A stretch of 64,000 bases of DNA from an uncultured Nitrospirales bacterium (GTDB taxonomy: Bacteria > Hydrogenedentota > Hydrogenedentia > Hydrogenedentales > GCA-2746185). Shown piece by piece: positions 1 through 32,041 of this stretch (position 1 is the stretch's first letter; each line of letters starts with the position of its first letter). The notes beneath the pieces were generated by a model. It saw only the letters and a list, made by a program, of their open reading frames with translations. It ran no database searches and was not told the origin of the DNA. Both the position numbers and the translations under genes were made by a program. The DNA is taken from assembly GCA_964620045.1 (NCBI GenBank), contig CAZUJL010000011.1:31477-95476 (forward strand). The letters run 5' to 3'.

Positions 1-974
1 TGCTCATCATCGGCCCGTGGCCGCATGGCGGCGAGCAGACGGTCGGGGATTTCACGTTTCCGGAAAAGACCAAGTTCCAGTGGACGCGCCTTGCGCATCA
101 GTTCCTGCGGCACTGGCTGCTGGGCGAGGACAACGGGATCATGGATCAGCCGGCGGTGCACTACTACGTGCTCGGCGACTTCGTCGATCCGAACGCACCG
201 GGCAATGAGTGGCGCACGGCCGAGGATTGGCCGCCGTATCCAACCACGGCGACCTCGTTCTACTTCGCGCAGGATGGCGCGCTCTCGCAGACTGCGCCGA
301 ACTCGGCGGATTCGTTGCGTCGCTTTACCTTTGATCCCACCAACCCCACTCCGTCCGTCGGCGGGCCGAATGTCGCTATTTCGGGCGGGCCGCGCGATCA
401 GCGCCTGATCAGTTCGCGGCCGGACGTGTTGAAGTTCGAGACTGCCCCGCTTACGGAAGCCATGGAAGTGACCGGCGCGATCACGGTGTCTTTGCATGTA
501 TCGACCGACGCGCCCGACACCGACTTCCACGCGAAATTGATCGACATCTATCCGGATGGCCGTGAAATTAACTTGTGCGAAGGCGCGGCGCGGTTGAAGT
601 TTCGCGAGGGCCGCGAACAACCAAAGCCGGTTGTGCCGGGAACGGTCGTGCCGCTCGAAATTCGCTGCGAGTCGGTCAGCGTTGTGTTCAACACCAGTCA
701 CCGGATTGGTGTGCTCGTGTCCAGCAGCAACTATCCGCGCTTTGAGTTGAATCCCAATACAGGTGCGGATCGCCCGGTATACACCGTCACGCCTGCAGCC
801 GGCGCGACGCCGACCCTCGCCAGTCAGGTACAGATGAATCGCACGCCGGGTGAACCGCCGGAGGTCATTGCCGATCAGGTGCTCGACGCCTCCAGCGTCC
901 GCAATGCCCGCAACACGGTGTATATGGATCGCGAACGGCCGAGCGCGTTGGTTCTGCCCGTCCGCGCGCGTTGA
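1..974 (+). CDS. CocE/NonD-family hydrolase (X-Pro dipeptidyl-peptidase-like), C-terminal part; the 5' end lies outside the window
   Basis: Frame 3 is open from base 3 (LIIGPWPHGGEQTV...) and continuous with ORF 141..974. The beta-sandwich C-terminal domain pattern matches CocE/NonD-family hydrolases. Confidence 0.55.
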   Translation, partial: LIIGPWPHGGEQTVGDFTFPEKTKFQWTRLAHQFLRHWLLGEDNGIMDQPAVHYYVLGDFVDPNAPGNEWRTAEDWPPYPTTATSFYFAQDGALSQTAPNSADSLRRFTFDPTNPTPSVGGPNVAISGGPRDQRLISSRPDVLKFETAPLTEAMEVTGAITVSLHVSTDAPDTDFHAKLIDIYPDGREINLCEGAARLKFREGREQPKPVVPGTVVPLEIRCESVSVVFNTSHRIGVLVSSSNYPRFELNPNTGADRPVYTVTPAAGATPTLASQVQMNRTPGEPPEVIADQVLDASSVRNARNTVYMDRERPSALVLPVRAR

Positions 975-1033
975 AGCACTCGCGGCGCTCAGCGATAATC
1001 TGCGCTCAACGCCGTACTTGGAGGCCATCCGCA

Positions 1034-25861: not shown

Positions 25862-25954
25862 CAAAAGCTCCTCGAAAGCTGGCGCGACCGCCCAAAAGCG
25901 GCTTACTATTGCGCACGAACGGCCGGTGAATCCAGCCGCCGAAAGGAATGGGTG

Positions 25955-26239
25955 ATGTCCAAACCTCGCGTCGAAATCGTCTACTGCACGCAGTGCCGCT
26001 GGCTGCTTCGCGCCGCGTGGCTTGCGCAGGAACTGCTGACCACCTTCGAGCAAGAACTCGGCGAAGTGGCGCTCCAGCCCGGAACGGGCGGCGTCTTCGA
26101 GGTCCGCGCGCAAGGCCGGCTCGTATGGTCGCGCGTGGCCGACCACGGTTTCCCCGACGCCAAGGAACTCAAGCAGCGCGTGCGCGACGTCATCGCGCCG
26201 GAAAAGGACTTGGGGCATAGCGATACGCGGCCATCCTGA
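25955..26239 (+). CDS. SelW/SelT/Rdx-family small redox protein (CxxC variant)
   Basis: VEIVYCTQCRW motif at the N-terminus; about 95 aa. Confidence 0.6.
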   Translation: MSKPRVEIVYCTQCRWLLRAAWLAQELLTTFEQELGEVALQPGTGGVFEVRAQGRLVWSRVADHGFPDAKELKQRVRDVIAPEKDLGHSDTRPS

Positions 26240-26251
26240 GAAAAGCGACGG

Positions 26252-27160
26252 TTATTGCACCCCTTTGGGGTCCAACTCCGCCACGCGCCGGCGGCAGTCG
26301 TCGATCAAATCGATCATGGTGTCGAAGGACTTCCGCGTCTCGGGATTTTTGAACACAATCCTTCGTTGTTCCGGCTGTACCTTCCAGTCTCCCCAGTCGC
26401 CGATCAGGATATCCAGCAACGAGCCCACGTAACCCGTCATGAGCTGGTGAAGCTTGATGAGTTCGAGAATTTCGGAGTTGTTCCGCGATAGACCTCCGAC
26501 GAATTCCGTCCGGATCTTGGCGCGGGCGCTTGTGCCCACACCCCGCTGGATCAACCGCTCGTCGAGCACGGCCTCGATATCGGTAAAGTAGCGCGCGCAC
26601 TCCTCCGCGGCGCGCTCATGATTCGCCACGGCTTCCTTGTACGCCTCAAGCTCCTCCCGGGAAGTTATCTGCGTGACAATGTTGATGAGCATTTGCGTGG
26701 TGCGATCCGCTGTGCTCATCAGGTTGTTCACCGACTCGCGGATATCGTCCAAGAGTTCCCGCATTGCGGCGTACGCGCGGCCTTCGTCGATATCGTCGGG
26801 TGCCGTCGCATAGGGGTGTCCCGTCAGATATTTCTCGGTGTAGACAATCGGGTCCCAAGGGCCAATATTGCGGGCCGCGATCACGGCCCGCTCGATGCGC
26901 TCGGCGCGGACGTGGGCAACAGACCCAATGATCAGGATAATGCCGAGCAGAATCCCGACGCTGTATCCAACCTCCGCGGCGATCTCGCTGCGGTCGCTCA
27001 CCATCCACGCCGCCCCGCCGAGGATCAACGACAGAATGATCACTCCCGCGACCACGGCCGAAAGGAACGCGGCCGAACTGGCCGGCAGGGCGTCGCTGAG
27101 CAAAGGCACCACGGCCATCAGCAGGAGAAACAGGGTCAAGCTGGCGCTTACGATTCGCAT
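26252..27160 (-). CDS. Hypothetical membrane protein (3 N-terminal TM helices plus a helical soluble domain); paralog of 27549..28253
   Basis: Shares the C-terminal motif [IL]x[DE]WG[DN]W and a collinear helical segment with the downstream paralog. Confidence 0.55.
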   Translation of the reverse strand: MRIVSASLTLFLLLMAVVPLLSDALPASSAAFLSAVVAGVIILSLILGGAAWMVSDRSEIAAEVGYSVGILLGIILIIGSVAHVRAERIERAVIAARNIGPWDPIVYTEKYLTGHPYATAPDDIDEGRAYAAMRELLDDIRESVNNLMSTADRTTQMLINIVTQITSREELEAYKEAVANHERAAEECARYFTDIEAVLDERLIQRGVGTSARAKIRTEFVGGLSRNNSEILELIKLHQLMTGYVGSLLDILIGDWGDWKVQPEQRRIVFKNPETRKSFDTMIDLIDDCRRRVAELDPKGVQ

Positions 27161-27248
27161 GGGGTCGCTCTACGTTTCTACGAATCGTAACAATATACAG
27201 AAAAGGGGCCAGCGCGTTATCGCGCTGGCCCCTTTTAGACTTCGGTTT

Positions 27249-27420
27249 TTACGCCGCGACCGTGCTACCGCCGCGCACTTCGTCGCCGAAGCGCACCGAT
27301 ACGATTTGCGATACGCCGCGTTCCTGCTGGGTCACGCCGTACATGCCGGCAGCCTGCGCCATCGTCTGTTTGTTGTGCGTAATCACGACGAACTGGGTGT
27401 CGACCGTGAACTCTTCGACC
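27249..27420. repeat. Direct repeat copy A (~170 bp); partner at 28287..28458
   Basis: Aligned by eye: a core of about 150 bp differs at one position, with flanks becoming degenerate. Confidence 0.85.
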
Positions 27421-27452
27421 ACACTATGCAAATGCCGATGTTTACGATTCAT
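27249..27452 (-). pseudogene. Detached duplicate of the last ~57 codons of smc
   Basis: 27268-27417 is identical to 28306-28455 apart from one mismatch. It encodes the same C-terminal peptide as SMC (VEEFTVDTQFVVITHNKQTMAQAAGMYGVTQQERGVSQIVSVRFGDEVRGG). Confidence 0.7.
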
Positions 27453-27548
27453 CGCACCGGTTACGGTTTTGCGAATAGCACGGACGTTCTCCGCGCGCCT
27501 GTTAAAAAAAGTGCGCTTAGGTTGCAGCGTGCCTCCCGTTACCGATCC

Positions 27549-28253
27549 TCACGGGGCGGCTGCAGCTTCCTCCAGGAGTTTGACCTCTTGGCGTTTCGCA
27601 ACAACCAACGCTTGGGCTGCTTGTGCCTTTTCAAACAAAGCTTGGTACTTCGCGTGCATTTCAGAATCCGGGATCATGACTGCGACGTTTTCCCGGTCGA
27701 CAGACCAATTTCCCCATTCCTGGATCGCTAGCTTTAACATGCCCTGAAGGTGTGCCGCAAGATCAAGATTCGCGGCGCAGTATTCATTCACGAGCTGTTG
27801 ACCTTGGGGATCCTCCTTCGCATGCCATGCCGCCATTTCTGCCTGGCGGCGAGCGGGACTGATACCGTGCAATTGCATTTCCTGTTCCCAAGATTCACCG
27901 GCGGCGTTGTACGCTTGAATGAAACGCTGTGTTGCGGCTTCGAAGGTTTCGAGTCGTTGCAACGCCGTTTCGAGTTCCTCGCGTGAATCGGCAATCCCCA
28001 TGTTCACGTCCGGTTGGGCGACCACATCGTTCATGGCCGTCTTCCAATCGGACTTGAGTTGCGCGGCGCGTTTCTCCACTGCTGCAGCGGCAATAGCCAC
28101 GCGTTCATCGTCGATGTGTGTTTGCAGGGCTTCGTTAGCATCGCGGGATTGCTTCGCCGCATAGAACCAAAACGCGGCAGCCAATATAACTAGGACCGCA
28201 GTAGCGCAATTCGCGATGACATTGAGGCGTCGCATACCGCACCACCATGTCAC
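27549..28253 (-). CDS. Hypothetical membrane-anchored protein (1 TM plus helical domain); paralog of 26252..27160
   Basis: N-terminal TM helix and the motif AIQEWGNWSV (compare LIGDWGDWKV in the paralog). Confidence 0.55.
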   Translation of the reverse strand: MTWWCGMRRLNVIANCATAVLVILAAAFWFYAAKQSRDANEALQTHIDDERVAIAAAAVEKRAAQLKSDWKTAMNDVVAQPDVNMGIADSREELETALQRLETFEAATQRFIQAYNAAGESWEQEMQLHGISPARRQAEMAAWHAKEDPQGQQLVNEYCAANLDLAAHLQGMLKLAIQEWGNWSVDRENVAVMIPDSEMHAKYQALFEKAQAAQALVVAKRQEVKLLEEAAAAP

Positions 28254-28286
28254 ACGGTCCGTACTAGCGACAAATCCGCTATCGAA

Positions 28287-28458
28287 TTACGCCGCCGCGT
28301 GGCTCCCGCCGCGGACTTCGTCGCCGAAGCGCACCGATACGATTTGCGATACGCCGCGTTCCTGCTGGGTCACGCCGTACATGCCGGCAGCCTGCGCCAT
28401 CGTCTGTTTGTTGTGCGTAATCACGACGAACTGGGTGTCGACCGTGAACTCTTCAACC
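28287..28458. repeat. Direct repeat copy B (the 3' end of intact smc)
   Basis: See copy A. Confidence 0.85.
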
Positions 28459-31400
28459 ATCGACACAAAGCGGCCGATGTTCGCGTCGTCCAGCGGGGCG
28501 TCCACTTCGTCGAGCACGCAGAACGGGCTCGGCTTGGCCTTGAAGATGCCGAACAGCAGCGCGATCGCCGTCATGGCCTGCTCGCCGCCGGACAGCAGCA
28601 TGATGCTCTGCGGCTTCTTGCCGGGTGGACGCGCTTCGATCTCGATGCCGCACTCCAGCGGGTCGTTTTCGTCGGTCAGGAACAGGCGCGCCTGGCCGCC
28701 GTTGAACAACCGTCGGAAGTAGTTCTTGAAGTTTTCCGCGACCGCGTTGAAGGTCTCCACGAACATCGCGGTGATGGTCTTGTCGATGCGCTGGATCACG
28801 CCGAGCAGCGCTTCGCGCGCCTTGCGCAGGTCCTGATCCTGCGCCACCAGGAACGCGTGCCGCTCGACGAGCGCCTCGTGTTCCTCGATCGCCATCAGGT
28901 TCACCGGGCCGAGCCGTTCCAGACGCTCGCGGATATCGGCGACCATCTTTTCGCGCGTCTCCGCGTCGTGCTCGTCCGCGCCGACTTCTTCTTCGGTCAG
29001 CGACGCCAATGCCACGTGGTACTCGTTCAAAATCCGCTCGCGGAAGAATTCCAACTGGCTCTCGTCGTGCCGCAGTTCCATCTCGGTCTTGTGCACGAGC
29101 GTCTGCGCCTCGCGCACTTCCTCGCGCAGCACCTTGAGCGCCTTTTCGATCGTGTCGGATTCATCGAGCACTTCCTGGCGCCGGTTCTCGGCTTCGACCA
29201 CGCGCGTCCGCGCTTCCTCGCGCGCTTCGGACAAGGCCTTCGAGCGTTCGAGGTGTTCGGTAATGTCGGTTTCGAGCAGGCCCACCTGCGTGCGGAAGTC
29301 TTCGATCGCCTGTGCGCGACGGCCGGCTTCGCTGCGCGCATGCGCACACTCGCGCTGCACGCGCTGGTGCTCGCGCGCGGTCTCTTCGACCGACTTCGCC
29401 AGTTCAGCGATGTGCACGCGCAGGTCCGCCAGCGCCGCCGCCATCGTGGCGTGCGCCGTGCGCGCTTCGGCCGAGGCCTCCTGCGCCATGGTCAGCGCGC
29501 GCTCTAGCGACATTGCTTCCAGTTCCAGCGCCGCCGCCGCGTCCTGCTGCTGCGTGCGCTGGGTCGTGAAATCGTCGCGGCGCGAGACGAGCACATTGCG
29601 CTCGGCCTCGTTGTGTTCGGCGGATTTCTCCAACCGGGCGATTTCGCGCGACAGGCGGTCGCGTTCCGCAGCCACTTTGGCCCGGCCCGTGCGCACCGCG
29701 TCCATGCGCTGAGTCAGCGCCTCGCGCAGCTCGGTCTGCGCCGCCAAATGCAACGCCACGTCTTCGTTTTTCCACGCTGCGTGCGCCAGGCGGAATTCCA
29801 CGTCCGCCAGCGCCGCGTCGAGCCGCTCGATCTCCGCGCTGCGGCCGAGCAACCCGCGGCTTTCGTTTGCCGCGCGGCCGCCGGTCACCGCGCCCGAGGG
29901 CACGATCACCGAACCGTCCGCCGTCACGAAGGATCGGCGCGGCCGAACTTCGCGCGACAGGCGCAGGGCCTCGTCGAGCGAATCTGTAAGGTACGTGTCG
30001 CCCATCAAATAACGCACGATCGCGCTGTAGCGTTCATCGAAATTGACAAGGCTCAGCAGCGAACGCGCGGGGATGCTCTCGGCGTTTTCCGTCACGGCCG
30101 CTTCAATCGCATCGAGCGGCAAGAACGTCACGCGGCCGGCTTGTTGTTCCGACAAATAGGCAATCGCGGCCGCGGCATCTTCGCTGCGCTCGACCACGAC
30201 ACAATTCACATACGCGCCCAGCGCCGCTTCGACCGCGCGCTCGAATTCCGGGGCCGTGCGCACGAGATCGCCGACCGGCCCGATCACGCCGGACGCCGCC
30301 GGATGCGCCGTCTGCTTTGCGTGCATGATCGCTTTCACGCCCGCCGCGAAACCTTCGTACGAGTCGCGCAGTTCGCGGAAACTCGTCAGACGCGCTTCGA
30401 CACGGCCGCGCTCTTCGCGCAACCCTTGCCAAATCGCGCGCGCGGTTTCGCGTTCTTCGCGCAGGCGTTTCTCCGCGATGTTCGCTTCGCTGAGTTCGCT
30501 CTCGACACCCGCCAGCGCGGCGGCTTCCGCCTGCTCGCGCTGCTCGGCATCGGCCAGCGCAGCATTCAACGATTCGCGCTGCCGTGCTTCCTCGGCGAGA
30601 CGCGTATCGAGCGCCGCGAGCTGTTCTTCCATGTGCGCGATGTTGACGGTGAGCTTCTCAATCGCCGTCTCGGCGCGCGAGCGCTGGTTCATCGCATCTA
30701 CTGTCTTACGCCGCGATTCTTCAAGTCGCGCGTCCGCTTCCTTCACGCGCTCCGACGCCTGCTGCAGCTCGGCCTGGCGCGCGGCGAGCACGGCGTCGAT
30801 TTCGGCCTGCTCCGCACGCAACGCCTCGAGCCGCGCGGCCACTTCAGTGCCCTGCGTTTCGAGCGAATTCCCTTGTATTTCCAGAGATTCCCGCTCCGCC
30901 GCGGCCTTCTGCTCCTGGTCGCGCGAGAACGTGATCTGCTGCCGCACGAGCGCCACGTGCCGCTCGATTTTTTCCATCTCCACGTCGATCTCGTGCACCG
31001 CTTCGCGCCGCGCGTGGAGGTTGCGATCCGCTTCGAGTTTCGCGAGGCTGAGTTCTTCGTGCCGCGCCTCGAGCTCGCTCATCTCGGCGTTTTTCTTTTC
31101 GTACGTGTCCTGCGCCTGCGCGAAGCGTTCGTTCAACTCGGCCAATTTCGCGGTGAGGTCGCGCTGCTTGAGCCACGACGCGCGGATTTCCAGCTCGCGC
31201 AGTTGCGTGGTGAGTTCGCGGTGCCGCAGCGCCGCGTTTACCTGGCGCTTCAGCGATCGCATCTGCCGCTCGACTTCGTGAACGATGTCGCCGAGGCGCA
31301 ACAGATTTTGATCCGCGCCTTCGAGTTTGCGCATCGCGATCTTCTTGCGCGTTTTGTATTTGATGATCCCGGCGGCTTCTTCGAACAGGAAGCGGCGGTC

Positions 31401-31865
31401 TTCCGGCTTCGAGCTGAGCACCATGCCGATCTTGCCCTGCCCGATCATCGAGTACGCGTTCGTCCCGATGCCGGTGTCCATGAACAGTTCCTGCACATCG
31501 CGCAGGCGGCATGGCGCCTTGTTGATCAGGTACTCGCTCTCGCCCGAGCGGTACACGCGGCGGGTGACCTGCACCTCGGCAAATTCGATCGGCAGCGCGC
31601 CGTCGGCGTTGTCGAAAGTCAGCGTCACTTCGGCCATGCCCATGGCCGCGCGCTCTTCGCTGCCGTTAAAAATCACGTCCTGCATATGCGCGCCGCGCAG
31701 GCTCTTGGGCTTCTGCTCGCCCAGCGCCCAGCGCATCGCGTCGAGAATATTGCTCTTCCCGCAGCCGTTCGGCCCCACCACCGCGGTCATGCCCGCGTCG
31801 AGGTCCACAATGGTTCGGTCCGCGAAGGACTTAAAGCCGATCATTTCGATTCGTTTGAAATGCAT
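28287..31865 (-). CDS. smc: Chromosome partition protein SMC
   Basis: MHFKRIEMIGFKSFADRT...VVGPNGCGKSNILDAMRWALGEQ, a long coiled coil, the LSGGEQAMTAIALLF signature, and a C-terminal Walker B segment. Confidence 0.9.
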   Translation of the reverse strand: MHFKRIEMIGFKSFADRTIVDLDAGMTAVVGPNGCGKSNILDAMRWALGEQKPKSLRGAHMQDVIFNGSEERAAMGMAEVTLTFDNADGALPIEFAEVQVTRRVYRSGESEYLINKAPCRLRDVQELFMDTGIGTNAYSMIGQGKIGMVLSSKPEDRRFLFEEAAGIIKYKTRKKIAMRKLEGADQNLLRLGDIVHEVERQMRSLKRQVNAALRHRELTTQLRELEIRASWLKQRDLTAKLAELNERFAQAQDTYEKKNAEMSELEARHEELSLAKLEADRNLHARREAVHEIDVEMEKIERHVALVRQQITFSRDQEQKAAAERESLEIQGNSLETQGTEVAARLEALRAEQAEIDAVLAARQAELQQASERVKEADARLEESRRKTVDAMNQRSRAETAIEKLTVNIAHMEEQLAALDTRLAEEARQRESLNAALADAEQREQAEAAALAGVESELSEANIAEKRLREERETARAIWQGLREERGRVEARLTSFRELRDSYEGFAAGVKAIMHAKQTAHPAASGVIGPVGDLVRTAPEFERAVEAALGAYVNCVVVERSEDAAAAIAYLSEQQAGRVTFLPLDAIEAAVTENAESIPARSLLSLVNFDERYSAIVRYLMGDTYLTDSLDEALRLSREVRPRRSFVTADGSVIVPSGAVTGGRAANESRGLLGRSAEIERLDAALADVEFRLAHAAWKNEDVALHLAAQTELREALTQRMDAVRTGRAKVAAERDRLSREIARLEKSAEHNEAERNVLVSRRDDFTTQRTQQQDAAAALELEAMSLERALTMAQEASAEARTAHATMAAALADLRVHIAELAKSVEETAREHQRVQRECAHARSEAGRRAQAIEDFRTQVGLLETDITEHLERSKALSEAREEARTRVVEAENRRQEVLDESDTIEKALKVLREEVREAQTLVHKTEMELRHDESQLEFFRERILNEYHVALASLTEEEVGADEHDAETREKMVADIRERLERLGPVNLMAIEEHEALVERHAFLVAQDQDLRKAREALLGVIQRIDKTITAMFVETFNAVAENFKNYFRRLFNGGQARLFLTDENDPLECGIEIEARPPGKKPQSIMLLSGGEQAMTAIALLFGIFKAKPSPFCVLDEVDAPLDDANIGRFVSMVEEFTVDTQFVVITHNKQTMAQAAGMYGVTQQERGVSQIVSVRFGDEVRGGSHAAA

Positions 31866-32041
31866 GGTTTCCCGCCTGAGTTGATGCGCCCGAGATCCCC
31901 CAGCACGCGATCGCGCAGCTTCGAAAAAGCACGGCACAGCCGCCGCGCCAATCGAGGGGTGGGCTTCCGCCCAAAGATACCGCCCCACCGCCCAGCCCAT
32001 TGTCGGCGCTGGGGTTAGGGAATGTCAATCGCGAAATAACC

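Follow-up and report, generated by a model that had tools for sequence, protein, structure and literature searches.

The 3' end of smc in an uncultured member of the Hydrogenedentota is present twice, as a 173-nt direct repeat that encloses a small gene (geneA), and this repeat is probably the scar of a combined homologous and illegitimate recombination at a variable spot that separates smc from the convergent gene rdx. In the window, i.e. the whole stretch of 64,000 nucleotides that was analysed, the features of the locus follow each other in the minus-strand transcript order given in table 1, and the other neighbours (RNase Y, T2SSE ATPase, dnaN and asd) are core chromosome. The true start of smc is probably M46 at 31865; a database look-up for the exact SMC protein from M46 returned no record, and smc orthologues in Hydrogenedentota MAGs are 91% identical over the C-terminal part.

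Table 1. Features of the smc–rdx locus in the window, from smc downstream; T1-T173 are the positions of the repeat in transcript direction.
Feature	Position	Strand	Description
smc	28287..32000	-	intact; SMC_N 7e-70, SMC_hinge 5e-32; ORF 1237 aa
repeat copy B	28287..28459	-	3' end of working smc, T1-T173
last 28 nt of present smc (…GGSHAAA*)	28287..28314	-	read as imported with geneA
spacer from smc stop to geneA ATG, 51 nt	28236..28286	-	46/51 identical to L002; read as shared cassette
geneA	27549..28235	-	228 aa; putative inserted cargo
geneA 3' flank, 45 nt	27504..27548	-	ends in T-run; common to L082 up to …GCACTTTTT
apparent decayed geneB-type 5' remnant, 82 nt	27422..27503	-	alignment to geneB 5' regions; fused to T1
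repeat copy A	27249..27421	-	read as displaced native smc 3' end (…GGSTVAA*), gene fragment
67-aa ORF	27249..27452	-	10 remnant codons in frame with 57 C-terminal SMC residues
palindrome CTTCGTCGCCGAAG	27278..27291 (copy A), 28316-28329 (copy B)		T131-144, encodes RFGDEV
native smc intrinsic terminator	27201..27236	-	16-bp stem, 11 G-C pairs; after displaced tail
geneB	26252..27160	-	302 aa; preceded by leader; resident of the site
rdx	25952-26239	+	convergent with smc; ABC ATPase gene beyond

An earlier note on this DNA had described a near-identical direct repeat of about 170 bp that duplicates the 3' end of smc and brackets a gene, and this description is borne out by the two 173-nt copies, which are spaced by 1038 nt from start to start and differ at 8 positions (27258, 27259, 27261, 27262, 27263, 27267, 27276 and 27417). 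The longest identical run of the repeat comprises 140 nt (27277-27416), and beyond the repeat ends identity collapses at once, with 42 mismatches in 49 positions past one end and 36 in 49 past the other. Within the repeat, the mismatches are clustered: when positions are numbered in transcript direction, i.e. along the minus strand, a single one falls into T1-T145, compared to seven in the 28 positions next to the stop codon, T146-T173 (Fisher P = 1e-5). Thus, the recurrence of 28306-28455 at 27268-27417 noted before is real, but this 150-nt sub-range contains two mismatches rather than a single one. The detached 67-codon ORF that ends in the C-terminal 57 SMC residues and the gene 27549..28253 on the minus strand inside the 1038-nt unit are likewise present, the ATG at 28235 being the more likely start of the latter.

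An important question is which of the two tail ends is native to this locus. In the diagnostic block T159-164, copy A reads ACGGTC (encoding S-T-V), to be compared with ACCGTC in the relative L008, whereas copy B reads CACGCG (S-H-A), to be compared with CACGTG in the more distant lineage represented by L002. Over the last 28 nt of smc, copy B agrees with the L002-lineage end at 27 positions and with copy A at 21. Moreover, the terminator hairpin that follows copy A is the same hairpin that directly follows the intact smc in L008. With its L008-type tail end and its L008 terminator, copy A is identified at the level of sequence as the displaced native end of smc, and the 28 stop-proximal nucleotides of copy B as a segment that arrived with geneA. 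The S-H-[AV] type of tail is also found in L014, L030 and, nearly, L009, which suggests that STVAA is a derived state common to L008 and copy A. By contrast with the ends, the repeat core is of the window type in both copies, with 144 of 145 positions identical between them and only 75 of 86 identical to L002; when L002 serves as reference, native sequence gives way to imported sequence somewhere between T143 and T159.

The site between smc and rdx is a small variable spot. The two genes are directly adjacent, which is the basal state, in L030, L089 and L090, and geneB alone occupies the site in L008 and L009, neither of which has a second copy of the smc tail. In L014, an unrelated insert of 2.8 kb is found, which to judge from its sequence includes a putative transposase ORF. 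L008 is the closest relative of the window by its flanking genes (95% amino acid identity for the ABC protein and 76% for geneB), and here the smc body (…DEVDAPLDDANIGRFVSM) runs uninterrupted over the repeat boundary to …GGSTVAA*, followed by the terminator hairpin and geneB. The more distant lineage L002/L082 carries both geneA and geneB at the same site as the window; in L082 the order is smc(…GGSHVAA*), geneA, 35 nt, a 44-nt tail remnant and geneB, with smc being intact and the tail repeat of 44 nt showing 95% identity at a spacing of 863. Among 67 smc loci of species-representative genomes, none had geneA, geneB or a duplicated tail. When an SMC C-terminal query ending in STVAA was used to look for a conspecific allele with an empty site, only relatives of at most 91% identity were retrieved, two of which added further examples of the basal smc|rdx arrangement. 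The state of L008 could also be a secondary loss through recombination between the repeats and not the original empty site.

The 86% amino acid identity of geneA to its orthologue in L002/L082 was considered as an anomaly in itself and dropped, since the flanking proteins reach 88-94%, so that only a comparison of synonymous sites is informative. At identical residues, identity at third codon positions between the window and the L002 lineage amounts to 87.9% for geneA as against 70-75% for its flanks (P = 2.6e-5), i.e. 70% for the ABC gene, 73% for rdx and 75% for the smc tail; the corresponding value for geneB is 47%, at 30% amino acid identity. This comparison shows geneA, as far as synonymous divergence can date it, to be younger at the locus than its flanks. 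Because geneA exceeds its flanks in this way and L008, the closest relative, is without geneA, the cassette appears to have been moved between lineages by recombination.

The far junction of the cassette carries a trace of its former surroundings. The 82-nt segment at 27422-27503 aligns with the 5' region of geneB, i.e. 5' UTR and start, with a score of 39 for L009 and of 27 for L002, and 0 of 2000 shuffles reached either score; this match was demonstrated by targeted Smith–Waterman alignment combined with shuffling, and BLAST-short yielded only chance 13-mers. The alignments thus show what appears to be a decayed geneB-type 5' UTR followed by a start codon and some 20 coding nucleotides, and it is within this remnant that the ATG of the 67-aa ORF lies. 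A marginal similarity of the same segment to smc upstream of the repeat (9-mer AACATCGGC; p = 0.05) is attributed to the geneB-type remnant. The remnant suggests that at its source the cassette had a geneB-type gene downstream of geneA, and the fusion of a geneB-type 5' end to smc T1 is an illegitimate junction. Downstream of …GCACTTTTT, the window and L082 differ: the window has the 82-nt remnant and the 173-nt tail (from T1), and L082 has an unrelated stretch of 35 nt and the 44-nt tail (from T129), the similarity between the 82-nt and the 35-nt segment being not significant (p = 0.13). Since the far junctions differ between the lineages, they either arose independently or one of them was remodelled later.

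Taken together, these comparisons are consistent with the following course of events. The native locus would have had the order smc(…GGSTVAA*), terminator and geneB, as in the closest relative. The incoming block would have consisted of the last ~28 nt of smc (…GGSHAAA*), the 51-nt spacer, geneA with its 3' flank and the start of a geneB-type gene, and its source may have been a divergent lineage or else a haplotype of the same species into which the block had been imported earlier. On the smc side, the join would have been homologous and placed in the tail of smc, either at the palindrome or immediately past it, i.e. between T143 and T159, whereas the join on the far side would have been illegitimate, with a truncated geneB-type 5' end fused to T1 of an smc tail. 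In consequence, 173 nt of smc would have been doubled, with smc staying intact because the incoming block brought a gene end, and the native end with its terminator would have been shifted 1038 nt downstream, where it would now close an smc-geneA unit with copy A located in its 3' region. A scan of the 51-nt spacer detected no terminator-like site, so that geneA is probably read through from smc. The near identity over 145 nt would not need selection, as both copies may be same-species smc brought together by a recent event or may have been subject to gene conversion.

For the enzymology of the joins, we infer three candidate models. The most economical one (model A) is a single unequal crossover between a version of the locus with geneA and the SHAAA end and the native, L008-like version, where the SHAAA end would have entered beforehand through homologous recombination that ended near T145. 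This model could account for the identical cores (both being the species' own smc), for the different ends, for the remnant and for the native terminator having been kept. One-sided homologous recombination together with a microhomology-primed join (model B) and a Campbell-type entry of a 1038-bp circle (model C) would both give the same product, but an L002-like donor would then need a near-identical core or later gene conversion. Given how much better the cores match each other than L002, the donor would have to be far closer than L002, or conspecific, unless gene conversion has intervened. With Campbell-type integration and homology-facilitated illegitimate recombination, the locus shares a homologous anchor join, here in the smc tail, that is combined with an illegitimate join, as well as the duplication of the anchor around foreign DNA. 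Classical homology-facilitated illegitimate recombination in natural transformation usually deletes recipient DNA and does not duplicate it, whereas recipient DNA is duplicated here; a search of the literature on this process found nothing directly applicable. To our knowledge, neither a circular intermediate nor a transformation system has been documented in this uncultured phylum.

Some integrative elements enter the 3' ends of tRNA, tmRNA or protein-coding genes and carry a replacement 3' end (attL/attR repeats). The smc locus is similar in that its repeats derive from the 3' end of the target (173 nt, and 44 nt in L082), the insert supplies the gene end and the original end sits on the far side of the insert. 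A trans-acting tyrosine or serine recombinase might therefore have inserted the geneA cassette at the smc-tail palindrome, with an attP that contained the replacement smc end, and the cassette could then be a remnant of, or a satellite to, an integrative element; we regard both versions as unlikely. The identity block in L082, which starts at T129, 2 nt ahead of the palindrome, and continues to the stop codon, does look like a typical att site of the kind that restores a gene end, and in the window imported sequence replaces native sequence just past the palindrome (T143-T159). Also, the element-side tail ends are nearly the same in both lineages (27/28), with the displaced ends following each host. 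However, the arms of the palindrome measure only 5 nt, and while the two lineages have compatible near boundaries, their far boundaries are not alike. Upstream of the putative crossover, the window repeat continues for 130 nt that are identical to the host, which would require an element arm with 130 nt of host-identical smc, something that a foreign attP would not have. Unlike 3'-end integrative elements, the cassette has a single 228-aa gene as its cargo and no integrase: its 865-bp insert contains one ORF, with no Pfam match, and no mobility gene, and no integrase or mobility gene was found among the neighbours scanned against Pfam over ~17-40 kb of the window, a scan that covered part of the ORFs, although an enzyme could act in trans. 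In viral contigs, no geneA relative was found beside recombinases, the one weak match there (L091) being probably spurious.

What remains of potential interest in this context is the palindrome itself. It occurs exactly twice in the window, and in both lineages it is flanked by breakpoints, as identity stops at T145 in the window and the repeat starts at T129 in L082. This hints at a crossover preference for the palindrome and might point to a site-specific enzyme. A doubtful generalization would be that the GC-rich palindrome within the final 45 nt of smc serves as a recurrent, possibly enzyme-targeted crossover point in the Hydrogenedentota. If so, lineages of this phylum would use the palindrome to swap fast-evolving genes for WGxW-family membrane proteins beside smc, and the 1-kb geneA unit would be a minimal gene cassette that carries its own replacement gene end.

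A different role for the same sequence had been proposed in the earlier note, which suggested that the copies may persist because the stretch is selected for a function beyond coding the SMC tail, with the hairpin formed by the palindrome as one candidate element. It is very improbable that the duplicated stretch is under selection as a hairpin, terminator or regulatory RNA, or that the 67-aa SMC-tail peptide has a function. The near identity of the copies over 140 nt would fit such selection, as would the ORF that has stayed open and begins at a geneB-type start codon, and the hairpin does lie in the only segment that is duplicated in both lineages. This position between breakpoints, however, is better explained by a crossover point than by selection for a function. 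The hairpin consists of plain codons for RFGDEV and, despite conservation of the protein, is disrupted in L009, L014 and L030. The RNA fold of the repeat is not more stable than those of shuffled sequences (z = +0.39), and Rfam gave no family above the gathering score on the repeat, the only matches being sub-threshold ones to ar35 on the terminator. Comparison of orthologous smc 3' regions likewise spoke against the earlier proposal: the relatives L008, L009, L030, L089 and L090 have one tail only, and the repeat in the geneA-bearing L082 is restricted to 44 nt. An extra SNP in another population, present in contig L081, is synonymous and would agree with a selected peptide, but one synonymous SNP has no statistical weight. 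In addition, the 57-residue fragment begins past the Walker B motif and D-loop, which we place by what is generally known of ABC-type ATPases, and would not form an ATPase domain alone; its weak SMC_N match spans only the last 45 profile positions. The 67-aa ORF is thus most likely a pseudogene fragment, and annotators should treat this 'SMC_N' ORF as such. A less likely extension is that the peptide is expressed from the captured geneB-type start and interferes with the SMC head.

An in-situ tandem duplication from the smc tail to geneB, in which the upstream gene copy then diverged into geneA, is just as hard to reconcile with the data and highly unlikely. geneA and geneB are indeed distant tandem paralogs, the direct repeats bound one 1038-nt unit and the geneB-type 5' remnant is found just upstream of copy A, and as in microhomology-mediated tandem duplication a 1038-nt unit is arranged head to tail, its junction (geneB-type 5' end | smc T1) being new. 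Yet the two genes are 16-18% identical, compared to 99% for the repeat core, and the differences between the copies are distributed unevenly (1/145 vs 7/28). The content of the unit is not duplicated, and the copies end in different alleles, i.e. in tails of two evolutionary types (STVAA and SHAAA), which a simple duplication cannot yield. Finally, the nearest relative of geneA is found in another lineage, with a synonymous identity above that of the flanks, and geneA is missing in the closest relative, L008.

That a strain mixture or a mis-join produced a false duplication is the least credible explanation: the source is a short-read MAG, and Logan contigs of the same project break within the repeat, but an independent assembly from a different run (contig L081, run SRR14271334) connects unique geneA sequence with unique geneB sequence by way of the complete copy A and the terminator, L082 shows the same gene order contiguously with a repeat too short to mislead an assembler, and each copy has its own distinct end that runs on into different unique sequence. 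The earlier concern about an assembly artefact could thus be settled. L081 is identical to the window at 905 of 906 positions, and its single extra SNP sits in the repeat core, which shows that the repeat copies are not strictly homogenized. Contigs L001 (geneA) and L011 (geneB onward), which stem from other runs and another project than L081, break inside the repeat, as a true repeat would cause them to; they begin with the same 30 nt of the core and then part into the two different tail ends. An empty site accompanied by a free 1038-bp circle, which corresponds to an equivalent assembly graph, was excluded by L081 together with L001 and L011.

Recombination at the variable spot thus being the preferred reading, the locus adds one more example to a known type of event, which resembles att-flanked 3'-end insertions as well as displaced orphan modules. 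The latter, i.e. displaced 'orphan' 3' modules, are found at rhs/cdiA polymorphic-toxin loci. As in these, a cassette would have recombined within the conserved part of a gene, with the old 3' fragment left downstream as a promoterless remnant beside small, fast-evolving genes. In contrast to rhs/cdiA, the replaced part comprises about nine near-equivalent codons of a housekeeping gene, and no toxin or immunity domains were detected at the locus by family searches. Although no new kind of system is revealed, this is a clean and datable case in which the essential smc survives an insertion into its own coding end by means of a replacement end, in which relatives supply empty, filled and differently filled sites, and which illustrates gene flow in an uncultured phylum.

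The locus also points to a very small family of very fast-evolving, so far unnamed membrane proteins at this hot spot. geneA is predicted to have one N-terminal membrane helix and a helical domain with a QEWGNW motif, and geneB three membrane helices and a helical domain with a GDWGDW motif. The pairwise identity of the two is 16%, but hhalign relates them with 91% probability (E 1.1e-6) over 156 columns. The earlier view of the enclosed gene as a diverged paralog of 26252..27160 therefore holds only at the level of a distant family, as supported by hhalign and the WGxW motif. Profile comparison and the common motif mark geneA and geneB as distant members of one tiny family. Neither protein matched Pfam, NCBIfam, PADLOC or PHROGs above the cut-off, a faint DUF3053 match in one relative being the best; the AlphaFold model of geneB, which is all-helical and of low confidence (pLDDT 64.8), had no PDB match with E < 0.1, and a search of JGI metagenome contigs gave no geneA/geneB loci. 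How rare these proteins are is reflected in only two protein clusters for geneA among 5.8 billion proteins and only 26 representatives for the geneB profile among 1.84 billion. geneB evolves fast, with 76%, 51% and 30% identity in relatives in which the ABC protein is 95%, 91% and 88% identical. P0018 has a geneA-like architecture. Membrane helices at the N-terminus and a helical domain are present in all family members inspected, together with, as in geneA, a C-terminal [DEN]WGxW motif, which in each of them stands before a conserved hydrophobic-x-F.

Within the smc tail, the duplication breakpoints flank a palindrome which encodes the residues RFGDEV: in the window, the identical run of the smc tail repeat stops 1 nt past this palindrome, and in L082, a contig of the more distant lineage that also carries geneA (the inserted membrane-protein gene) together with its distant paralog geneB, a 44-nt repeat begins 2 nt ahead of it.

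Features at the smc-rdx site and in related contigs
Feature	Position	Strand	Remark
Palindrome-flanking breakpoints	window 27278-27291 and 28316-28329; L082:70-113 and 933-976		same palindrome, two lineages
geneB leader hairpin	window 27145-27192	-	conserved; also upstream of geneB in L008, L009, L082, L086
smc ORF upstream extension	window 31866-32000	-	45 codons ahead of conserved MHFKRIEM start
Low-GC insert in smc-rdx gap	L014:6895-9700		2.8 kb; MAG contig JBCLBO010000024

The resident gene of this site, geneB (window 26252-27160, minus strand), is hyper-divergent relative to its neighbours. While the adjacent ABC ATPase retains 95%, 91% and 88% identity between the window and L008, L009 (relatives with geneB only) and L082/L083, respectively, the amino acid identity of geneB falls to 76%, 51% and 30% in the same three relatives, which suggests diversifying selection or allele replacement at the geneB locus. 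The leader of geneB can fold into a hairpin, in which 27145-27159 base-pairs with a UTR segment (27179-27192); the last two bases of the AUG start codon and the 12 nt after it lie within the former stretch. Five lineages carry this hairpin; changes in the stem are one-sided only, with no double compensatory change among the five, and the structure is a candidate translational control element.

The geneB-type family itself (proteins P0006-P0030 of a profile search) is very small and unnamed: a search of 1.84 billion proteins gives about 26 of its representatives at the 50% identity level. Its members are helical and membrane-anchored, and their C-terminal part has the motif [DEN]WGxW…hydrophobic-x-F; one of them shows faint similarity to DUF3053. 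For geneA, tblastn gave a single weak match (37% identity over 62 residues) on a viral contig (L091:4870-5064; IMGVR_UViG_3300022744_000628), probably a chance likeness of helical segments.

A different insert fills the smc-rdx gap of L014, from a MAG whose smc is the closest one in the set of species-representative genomes. By eye, the ORFs of this insert include those of a putative DDE (IS630-like) transposase and a putative MerR-like protein. The annotated smc start of the window probably lies too far upstream; the L014 smc ORF also has a similar N-terminal extension, which is non-homologous to that of the window.
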